In this document: in pieces, positions 1,355 through 1,575 of the stretch | How the letters are laid out: each line of letters starts with the position of its first letter | Position numbering within the stretch: the first letter of the stretch is position 1 | Source: a virus | Direction: 5' to 3' (one strand) | Virus genome (UHGV): UHGV-0184544 | Length of the DNA: 27,297 nucleotides | The notes under the pieces: model-generated | The model's input: the letters and a program-made list of their open reading frames with translations, nothing else | Told to the model about the DNA's origin: nothing | The model's database searches: none | Program-made: the position numbers and the translations under genes

Positions 1355-1365
1355 ACCTCATCAAG

Positions 1366-1421
1366 GTGATTATTTTTTGTGAAATAATTTCATGTGAAAT
1401 TATTTGGCTTGAAATTTTACT
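1366..1421. repeat. Iteron-like direct repeats (3-4 copies of GTGA(A/T)(A/T)TTATTT at ~13-14 bp phasing)
   Basis: gtgattatttttt / gtgaaataatttc / gtgaaattatttg / ttgaaatttta read directly in the intergenic region upstream of the replication genes. Candidate origin or regulator-binding array. Confidence 0.6.
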
Positions 1422-1455
1422 AAGAAGGGGGTAAGGGGGCAGATCTGTAACATCC

Positions 1456-1471
1456 GTGCCCGTAAGGGCAC
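1456..1471. promoter_or_regulatory. Perfect 16-bp palindrome GTGCCC-GTAA-GGGCAC (6-bp stem, GNRA-type tetraloop if transcribed)
   Basis: Read directly. Lies in the early rightward transcript between the cII-position ORF and the replication genes. BoxB-like RNA hairpin or a dimeric protein binding site; no convincing boxA found. Confidence 0.45.
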
Positions 1472-1575
1472 TACCAGAGGAAGGCAGCTCCATAGGTTAG
1501 GTAGATCACTGTATAGGGCGCGATAGTTTCTGGCGAAATTATTATTGTGCTAGCTATCACAGTGGAAATAGTACC

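Follow-up and report, generated by a model that had tools for sequence, protein, structure and literature searches.

The non-coding spacer of 221 bp at positions 1355-1575 of the virus genome UHGV-0184544 (27,297 nucleotides, the whole of which is called the window here) lies between the gene of a 93-residue protein, p93, and an open reading frame (ORF) of 128 aa, upstream of the genes for a superfamily 2 (SF2) helicase and a primase. Sequence comparison supports the view that selection maintains this spacer as a cis-acting element linked to the helicase and primase genes, and we consider it somewhat probable that it is the cis-acting replication origin region of the Eru1-type module formed by p93, the spacer, the SF2 helicase and the primase. 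It is the best origin candidate because it always travels with the p93-helicase-primase unit. A first-pass annotation of this DNA had proposed that an array of direct repeats in this intergenic region may be the origin. The location finds support in its fixed position in the module across 27 types of spacer, the RepL-like protein and iterons that occupy the same slot in a second class of modules, and the fact that a repeat finder, used with the same settings, reported no rival local repeat cluster between 1600 and 6600. The constant parts of the spacer are, however, a G-rich box and a block at 1490-1518, and not the repeats.

The association of the spacer with the replication genes was followed in 171 loci retrieved via the helicase or p93. 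In 170 of them, with 27 spacer types in between, the helicase lies 188-861 nt 3' of p93; the exception is phage phiHSIC, and the linkage persists down to 39% p93 identity. The module is widespread, being found in elements of Escherichia, Salmonella (Fels-1), Serratia, Photorhabdus, Klebsiella and Morganella and in Vibrio phages. In the smallest operons, those of Klebsiella and Morganella, the order is cro, p93, spacer, helicase, primase, (one ORF) and Q. Given its place 5' of the helicase in 170 of the 171 loci, p93 is, on this comparative evidence, the replication-module partner of the helicase and primase and not an analogue of cII. An equation of the 93-aa ORF, described earlier as the cII-position ORF, with cII is not supported, since relatives of the Klebsiella and Serratia groups have a separate CP76-type cII between cro and p93 (also PMC7556043) and p93 always accompanies the helicase.

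The elements recognized in the spacer are the following, in window coordinates:
1355-1575: the non-coding spacer, 221 bp
1364-1423, + strand: four tandem AT-rich units of 15 bp, consensus GTGAAATWATTTNNN
start 1364: unit 1, AGGTGATTATTTTTT
start 1379: unit 2, GTGAAATAATTTCAT
start 1394: unit 3, GTGAAATTATTTGGC
start 1409: unit 4, TTGAAATTTTACTAA
1382-1392 and 1395-1405: perfect 11-nt inverted repeat, AAATAATTTCA and TGAAATTATTT, formed by two units
1427-1439, + strand: G-box GGGGGTAAGGGGG (G5TAAG5), present once in the 27-kb window
1441-1446: AGATCT, with the first of two conserved GATC (Dam) sites
1456-1471, + strand: perfect palindrome GTGCCC-GTAA-GGGCAC with a C-G-closed GNRA/GNNA loop
1472-1484, + strand: TACCAGAGGAAGG, the counterpart of the CTTTWCCARNAG island of relatives, from core alignments
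1490-1518, + strand: conserved block CCATAGGTTAGGTAGATCACTGTATAGGG, with AGGTTA/GGTAGA half-repeats and the second GATC at 1504-1507
1533-1547, + strand: a fifth AT-rich unit, GCGAAATTATTATTG, on the other side of the core; its P13374 counterpart is GGTGAAATGATTATCG
1546-1561: CRP-like palindrome TGTGCTAGCTATCACA, 15 nt 5' of the start of the 128-aa ORF, lineage-specific and not kept in P13374

When the 27 spacer clusters are sorted into two classes, the window falls into Class I, together with P13374, L031/L121, the Klebsiella-type L041 group, Serratia L062, Fels-1, Morganella and others. Read along the sense strand, the shared elements of Class I follow one order, namely the G-box, a variable stretch of 30-45 nt, the CTTTWCCARNAG island, often after GGAACAG, and the block (C)ATAGGTTAGGTAGATCWCTGT, which always contains at least one GATC. 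The G-box consists of G5-7, 2-3 nt (TAA, AAA or TT) and G5-7; a pair of runs, G4-7 and G5-7 with a short linker, is found in all 16 Class I lineages examined, with the polarity of the sense of the replication genes. In Fels-1 the box reads GGGGAGGGGG. Over the 80 nt from the first G-run, these 16 lineages have a G content of 32-58% and a C content of 6-20%, further G-runs being frequent and C-runs almost absent. A cluster of G-runs on the non-template strand 3' of a promoter, as expected of a transcription-primed origin, is present. Related cores have one or two GATC sites at corresponding places, and the 29-bp block is retained in most Class I lineages. P13374 matches positions 1484-1557 of the window at about 95% identity, although both flanks have diverged. 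The pattern AGGTYA occurs 24 times on the + strand and twice on the - strand across 26 lineages of both classes (5.1 expected), a pattern that was picked post hoc and in lineages that are not independent of each other. Piracy of the core by satellites was rejected, given that in IMG/VR the 15-mer TAGGTTAGGTAGATC is found in module context only, the other matches being chance ones or an unrelated coding sequence of a marine phage.

The G-box, the CTTTWCCA island and TAGGTTAGGTAGATCWCTGT are retained whatever comes next, be it the 128-aa ORF, an ORF with a NUMOD4 domain or the helicase itself. This bears on the idea that the core is a recombination joint or homing target, at which selfish small ORFs would find their target site. 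The slot is indeed occupied by unrelated ORFs depending on the lineage (the PD-(D/E)xK-like 128-aa ORF, NUMOD4 or a RepL-like protein), and the spacer contains the mosaic boundaries that separate the window from P13374. The core is, however, equally conserved in modules that have no insert, namely those of Serratia (189-bp spacer), Klebsiella and Morganella, and the inserts sit 3' of the core and not inside it, so that we regard this explanation as very improbable. The 128-aa ORF is itself an optional insert between core and helicase, absent from the same Serratia, Klebsiella and Morganella modules, and in the L041 group (about 2733-3000) it is replaced by an 89-aa NUMOD4 ORF. Sub-threshold matches to REase_MTES_1575, of the PD-(D/E)xK type, were obtained for three of four homologues of the 128-aa protein, whose AlphaFold2 (AF2) model is poor (predicted local distance difference test score, pLDDT, of 43). 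Both PD-(D/E)xK and NUMOD4 are domain types typical of selfish or homing-type genes.

Class II spacers lack the G-box and have a RepL/HTH_36 protein of 133-177 aa encoded between p93 and the helicase. Three of the Class II proteins scanned (133-168 aa) reach the Pfam RepL cut-off and one of 145 aa falls just short. Two to four palindromic iterons (such as CGACAGGGTTTGTCG, or GGAACAGTTTGTTCC in three copies), exact IHF-consensus sites (AATCAANNNNTTA) and a conserved AAGGTCAACGGCGGATCGAGTC element lie 5' of the RepL-like gene. Judged by this content, the p93-helicase interval of Class II would plainly be the seat of initiator and origin functions. The Class II loci are the following:
L032, L035/L149, L036/L132, L039/L148, L040, L126, L130, L145, L152, L161, L167 and L091 (Vibrio phage 1.233.B, 4753-5506)

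The direct repeats described in the first-pass annotation are real, as four tandem units at 1364-1423 and the fifth at 1533-1547. The repeat finder, which was also run at stricter settings, returned three direct copies at 15-bp steps (1369, 1384 and 1399) and a distant copy at 1523-1543; the spacing of 15 bp corresponds to about 1.4 helical turns. The best periodic self-match is 62%, at period 15; when the whole region was shuffled by dinucleotides, 2 of 1000 shuffles reached it, and when only the AT-rich segment was shuffled, 4 of 1000 did. The repeat motif as originally given, with up to two mismatches allowed, has five matches in 1366-1544 versus six in the remaining 27 kb. Tandem Repeats Finder gave no output on the array, whose units are too degenerate. 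The array is the most AT-rich part of the spacer (70-78% AT). It is confined to the three lineages closest to the window, where it is always just 5' of the G-box and always of period 15. Its sequence diverges rapidly even between near-identical phages, with the symmetry of the inverted repeat retained. On a single strand, the inverted repeat at 1382-1405 is predicted to form a 10-bp stem with a 4-nt loop, and at one pair of this stem three relatives have G-C in place of A-T while a fourth has the intermediate G.T (26-31 of 500 shuffles), which gives modest support to the retention of the stem.

An iteron origin would be expected to have at least three well-conserved repeats of about 17-22 bp. 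What is observed here is four degenerate 15-bp units and one distant unit, diverging in close relatives. As to the proposal that the repeats are binding iterons, the periodic array stands, but it is lineage-specific, missing from most related lineages and in part an inverted repeat. To judge from these comparisons, the AT-rich "iterons" are lineage-specific and fast-evolving, and their action would be, in part at least, that of an inverted repeat.

These symmetric sequences are also what an explanation by transcriptional control would build on. In this view the 128-aa ORF and the helicase operon would have their operators or promoters here, and dimeric phage or host regulators would bind the inverted repeats. 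The perfect inverted repeat given by the AT-rich units and the copies on both flanks of the core would fit such a role, and in other lineages different inverted repeats, of the GTACTAG-N5-TAGTAC or the TTTAGAC/CTAGAC type, lie at the same flanks. The palindrome at 1546-1561 matches nine of ten positions of the CRP consensus, TGTGA-N6-TCACA. In addition, two sigma-70-like promoter matches lie on the - strand in AT-rich parts of the spacer, at 1398-1369 (10/12, inside the tandem array) and at 1568-1541 (9/12). The promoter matches fall, however, in AT-rich sequence, which often matches by chance; no sigma-70-like site is present in the spacers of three other lineages, for which reason a promoter of the helicase operon was rejected; the G-box and the 29-bp block are, by reading, unlike sigma-70 hexamers; and the core does not depend on the gene downstream, which may be the 128-aa ORF, the NUMOD4 ORF or nothing. 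We therefore hold transcriptional control to be distinctly unlikely as the main function of the spacer. The AT-rich units as operators of the 128-aa protein were also discarded, given that Fels-1 has a homologue of this ORF but repeats of the GTACTAG type, and a LexA box at CTGTATAG was discarded because, by reading of the sequence, it has no second half-site. The leftward promoter match at 1398-1369 would yield an RNA antisense to the 3' end of p93, reminiscent of lambda oop; a terminator for that RNA was not found.

The palindrome GTGCCC-GTAA-GGGCAC reported in the first pass is confirmed as perfect, and it is unique in the window even when three mismatches are allowed. It begins 33 nt past the last tandem unit. 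As single-stranded DNA (ssDNA) the hairpin has a predicted energy of -6.9 kcal/mol on either strand, with z = -3.9 and -3.0. Positional counterparts are found in three other lineages, AGCCC[GAA]GGGCT, AGTGC[GAA]GCACT and AGCGC[GAA]GCGCT, all directly 5' of GGAACAG. In the alignment of these hairpins, four of the six pairs are altered on both sides and 97% of cells are paired, which none of 500 shuffles equalled, for sequences that had been preselected for having the hairpin. Among variants of the window lineage, the closing C-G is changed to T.G in half. The loops on the + strand are all C-G-closed GNA or GNNA, which is the consensus both of stable RNA GNRA loops and of unusually stable DNA mini-hairpins. 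The claim of a GNRA hairpin is thus borne out for this DNA, with a stem that covaries between lineages, and is limited in reach, given that the hairpin is present in about 4 of 14 related lineages; about 10 other Class I lineages show only G-rich sequence there. Comparison with the intergenic regions of phages that share the module thus finds the core (G-box and block) conserved and the repeats and hairpin variable. The repeats and the hairpin are, as far as the alignments indicate, accessory and lineage-variable, with their internal symmetry kept by compensatory changes, and the common plan of the spacer appears to be one of lineage-specific symmetric sites, a conserved core and one further site.

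A hairpin in the early transcript may also act as RNA. According to this explanation, the spacer is an RNA element in the early pR transcript, serving in processing, translation control or processive antitermination, which p93 would read via an arginine-rich helix, as lambda N reads boxB. The predicted folding of the spacer RNA is better on the + strand (z -3.9, 0 of 200 shuffles) than on the - strand (z -1.8), the stems covary with G.U-compatible intermediates, the + strand loops are of the GNRA or GNA type, and p93 has an invariant basic helix, NxARxxANTRLR. Hairpins with a TTAAAGGT loop and covarying stems are found in other lineages directly 3' of p93. The better-than-shuffle folding of the + strand is nonetheless due to lineage-specific inverted repeats; RNAalifold over 14 lineages predicted no pairs and thus no common structure or shared core fold, and the GNRA hairpin is absent from most lineages. 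Indeed, the hairpin with its GNRA-like loop at 1456-1471 is the only boxB-like feature, and the comparison with nut sites fails in every other respect: boxA (YGCTCTTTA, at most one mismatch) has no match in 1-5000, no second copy of the hairpin is found in 22 kb of the 99%-identical prophage including the whole left arm, where N is not annotated either, and N is reported absent from Eru1 phages (PMC8044961). A nut site was rejected on these grounds. There is also no intrinsic terminator in or after the spacer for antitermination to override, apart from one weak candidate in Morganella. A terminator or attenuator was itself rejected, since a T-run after the hairpin is absent on both strands and a terminator scan of 700-1950 was empty. 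Rfam searches of the spacer gave no family match beyond chance-level snoRNA matches (E>=0.38), which excludes a known RNA family, and the search of the whole window at gathering score found only two STnc100 elements elsewhere. Finally, the fusion of p93 to a primase-helicase, described below, favours replication. Taken together, an RNA element of this kind is possible but unlikely.

The TTAAAGGT hairpins are a feature of their own. Their loop, of 8 nt, is constant, and one or two of them (up to three if judged by eye) lie 5-60 nt past the p93 stop in L131, L168, L171, L128, L090 (Fels-1, 4803-4830) and others, and they are absent from the window lineage. Their stems covary freely (CGGGT/ACCCG, CAGGC/GCCTG, ACCGGGC/GCCCGGT, CCAGAC/GTCTGG, CTGAC/GTCAG). 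A constant loop on a variable stem points to a putative recognition element of structured RNA or ssDNA.

With regard to the proteins that may act on the spacer, p93 belongs to PHROG 852 (E=3.7e-42), and no Pfam or NCBIfam model matches it. The alignment gives an invariant motif, EPVSFRxxNxARxxANTRLR, with the invariant residues N59, R62, N66, R68 and R70. The AF2 model of p93 has three helices (pLDDT 77), and neither a structural nor a sequence relative was found in the PDB. An exhaustive profile search of the p93 family returned 426 clusters at 50% identity, mostly stand-alone proteins of 70-110 aa. One is a fusion, in which the p93 domain forms residues 810-881 (E=2e-16) of an 883-aa protein, after a primase domain and a DUF5906-type NTPase (L295 3001-6777, a JGI metagenome contig). 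A replication role for p93 is suggested because its domain is fused to this primase-helicase. The C-terminal place of the p93 domain in the fusion is where the alpha protein of phage P4 has its origin-binding domain. More than 1 kb of non-coding sequence rich in tandem repeats lies 3' of the fusion gene, with 6.2 copies of the 15-mer GTCGCTGGTGCGGCG, TATGCACTGCC iterons, and runs of G10 and C9; at least 13.7 copies of AGGTCTAGCA at the same locus reach the contig end.

The closest solved relatives of the helicase are RadD (4e-17), XPB and T4 UvsW (3.5e-4), with the NCBIfam RadD model scoring under its cut-off. By these matches the helicase is akin to enzymes whose substrates are branched DNA and R-loops, and not to the ring-shaped replicative helicases. 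No O, RepL, Rep_3 or DnaA-like protein, that is, no initiator of the Rep type, was found in the window.

The fixed polarity of the G-run cluster, together with the lack of an O- or Rep-type initiator and the RadD/XPB/UvsW-like helicase, suggests that the origin may be opened by transcription. De-repression of the prophage would let transcription from pR pass cro and p93 and enter the spacer. Over the C-rich template of the G-box, the G-rich transcript would open the duplex, possibly as a persistent R-loop, and the AT-rich array just upstream would ease melting. The RadD/UvsW-like helicase and the primase would then enter at the displaced G-rich strand, which its C[GNA/GNRA]G mini-hairpin would mark, and p93 would recognize the AGGTTAGGTAGATC block or otherwise tether the enzymes there. 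The strand excess of AGGTYA and the AGGTCTAGCA copies at the fusion locus are a weak hint that p93 reads the AGGTTAGGTAGATC block. The R-loop detail taken by itself seems unlikely. The complete scheme, an initiator-less origin at which pR transcripts form a persistent R-loop at the G5-WAA-G5 box, the displaced strand loads helicase and primase, and p93 reads the AGGTTAGGTAGATC block, has to be called rather unlikely.

Several points weigh against the assignment of the spacer as origin and against its opening by transcription. The assignment follows from position and conservation. An origin inside a gene is possible, as in lambda O, P1 repL and N15 repA, and repeat clusters are the only feature by which it was excluded. 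Matches to DnaA boxes and IHF sites are not enriched in the window spacer (one weak DnaA-box-like site at 1378-1386 and no IHF site), and not every lineage has an AT-rich stretch next to the G-box. The window lineage has a G content of 36% after the G-box and no four-run G-quadruplex motif. As a rule of thumb, elongation zones of R-loops have 40% G, which is above the value of the window. The fold of p93 has no solved match, its DNA binding is putative, and unbiased counting found no k-mer common to all spacer classes. To this is added the post hoc nature of the AGGTYA enrichment and the non-independence of the lineages in which it is seen.

The window begins with a lambdoid immunity region, followed by the replication genes (ORF list and Pfam). 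The genes that flank the spacer are the following:
30-743, - strand: cI repressor of the LexA family (Pfam)
839-1042: Cro-family protein
1073-1354, + strand: p93, the 93-aa ORF (PHROG 852)
1576-1962, + strand: 128-aa ORF (PHROG 1347)
1956-3476, + strand: SF2 DEAD/DEAH-box helicase, Eru1A (Pfam ResIII, Helicase_C and DEAD)
3466-4437, + strand: primase, Eru1B, with Zn-ribbon, DUF7146 and Toprim domains (Pfam; PHROG 510, DNA primase, E=8e-139)

Genes for NinB/DUF1367, NinG and further proteins follow 3' of the primase. A pR-like promoter lies at 786-814, with no terminator between it and the G-box. The 128-aa ORF and the helicase gene overlap by 7 nt (1956-1962), and the helicase and primase genes by 11 nt (3466-3476); such overlaps suggest that translation is coupled along the module. 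Prophages in a few E. coli genomes (e.g., O157:H7 G5295) match the region at 99% identity, and the Oslovirus Shiga toxin (Stx) 2a phages P13374, TL-2011c, phi191 and PA2 match 65% of its length at about 89% identity; the helicase is 98% identical to that of P13374, and TL-2011c ranks equal in the DNA search. A DEAD/DEAH helicase, a Toprim protein and DUF1367 stand directly 3' of the LexA-family repressor and cro, and O and P are absent (Pfam, and the RefSeq annotation of the 99%-identical prophage), so that by its gene content the window is an Eru1-type lambdoid prophage.

The Eru1 type was defined by Llarena et al. 2021, who named the helicase, the Toprim protein and DUF1367 eru1A-C; its phages are reported to be without O, P, N, CII and CIII and to have a very unstable lysogeny, its stability being far below that of lambda-type Stx phages (PMC8044961). 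An origin, iterons or the intergenic region are absent from both papers on Eru types (PMC8044961, PMC8951638), in which only the helicase, the primase and DUF1367 are named and N, CII and CIII are given as lacking, and the paper on Serratia phage OS31 gives the replication module as helicase and primase only (PMC7556043). The search of the literature on replication of P13374 and on the motif strings found nothing relevant. In the literature found, the origin of the Eru1 type, the spacer and p93 are thus without a published description.

Other features of these genomes were also seen. Directly left of cI, the place of lambda rexAB, stands a type II restriction-modification pair, composed of a BsuBI/PstI-family endonuclease and an Eco57I-like methylase (L004 16928-19347 in the G5295 prophage; the same in P13374, L001 1-1936), and the left arm has no annotated N gene. 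The two STnc100 small RNA copies (RF02076; 140 and 130 bits) are full-length and lie on the + strand at 7044-7237 and 7513-7721 of the window, 3' of the ORF in the Q position; ARAGORN found no tRNA gene in 6300-8100. Records of 37-43 kb that were deposited as non-mobilizable "plasmids" carry p93, namely NZ_CP076549.1 (37,368 bp, Klebsiella), NZ_CP149982.1 (39,001 bp, Morganella) and NZ_CP083847.1 (Enterobacter); the first two are phage genomes with the minimal cro-p93-spacer-helicase-primase-Q operon. Such p93-bearing "plasmids" may be episomal or excised phages that replicate from the module.

The comparison yields a candidate origin of about 160 bp with two invariant elements and, in p93, a third protein of the module that had been overlooked. 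In the complete scheme given above, p93, from a family with at least 426 clusters and no known fold or function, would be the sequence-specific factor. The start of replication by a non-ring SF2 helicase and a primase, with no initiator of the O/P or Rep type, is not described in the literature found. The 27 spacer variants provide a natural comparison set, which includes the sister class with a RepL-like initiator in the same slot. Eru1 phages carried stx2a in the outbreak strains of 2011 (O104:H4) and 2006 (O103:H25), and their replication raises the dosage of the toxin gene (PMC8044961). An origin fired by transcription, if true, would couple de-repression directly to origin firing and could help explain the unstable lysogeny of the Eru1 type.

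Among known systems, lambda nutR shares with the window a short GC stem with a GNRA-type loop in the early rightward transcript, 3' of cro. Its loop is, however, a GNRA-like pentaloop and that of the window a tetraloop, boxA, N and a nutL-like copy are missing here, and most relatives do not have the hairpin. The lambda origin with O and P is alike in arrangement, given that both sites lie in the early rightward operon, 3' of cro and of the gene in the cII position, and are crossed by pR transcription, that both combine repeats with an AT-rich stretch, and that in both cases the replication genes and the cis site form one exchangeable module. They differ in that the window has no homologues of O and P and its site is intergenic instead of within an initiator gene, and in that the four 19-bp iterons of lambda are replaced by degenerate, lineage-specific 15-bp repeats. 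The P1 lytic replicon (RepL/oriL) and the RepL-type initiators of plasmids are matched by the Class II lineages, whose p93-helicase interval contains a RepL/HTH_36 protein along with palindromic iterons and IHF-consensus sites; the window and the other G-box lineages lack a RepL gene and have the G-box core instead.

The oriV module of RSF1010 (IncQ) comprises the RepA helicase, the RepB' primase and the RepC initiator. It resembles the Eru1-type module as a three-protein, host-independent-style module beside a compact cis region with repeats, G/C-rich and AT-rich parts and hairpins that serve as priming signals. The proteins belong to unrelated families. The helicase is of SF2 here and hexameric SF4 there, the primase is a Toprim protein here and of the archaeo-eukaryotic type there, one hairpin stands against the paired ssiA and ssiB, and p93 is only a putative binder of repeats. 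Origins primed by transcription or an R-loop are those of ColE1 (RNA II), T4 (oriF/oriG), T7 (primary origin) and the mitochondrial CSB II. The spacer differs from these in having no conserved fold like that of RNA II, no Rfam match and a modest G content in the window lineage. It shares with them the cluster of G-runs on the non-template strand 3' of a strong early promoter, the lack of a known dedicated melting initiator, a displaced strand with a predicted stable hairpin, and a helicase related to T4 UvsW and RadD.

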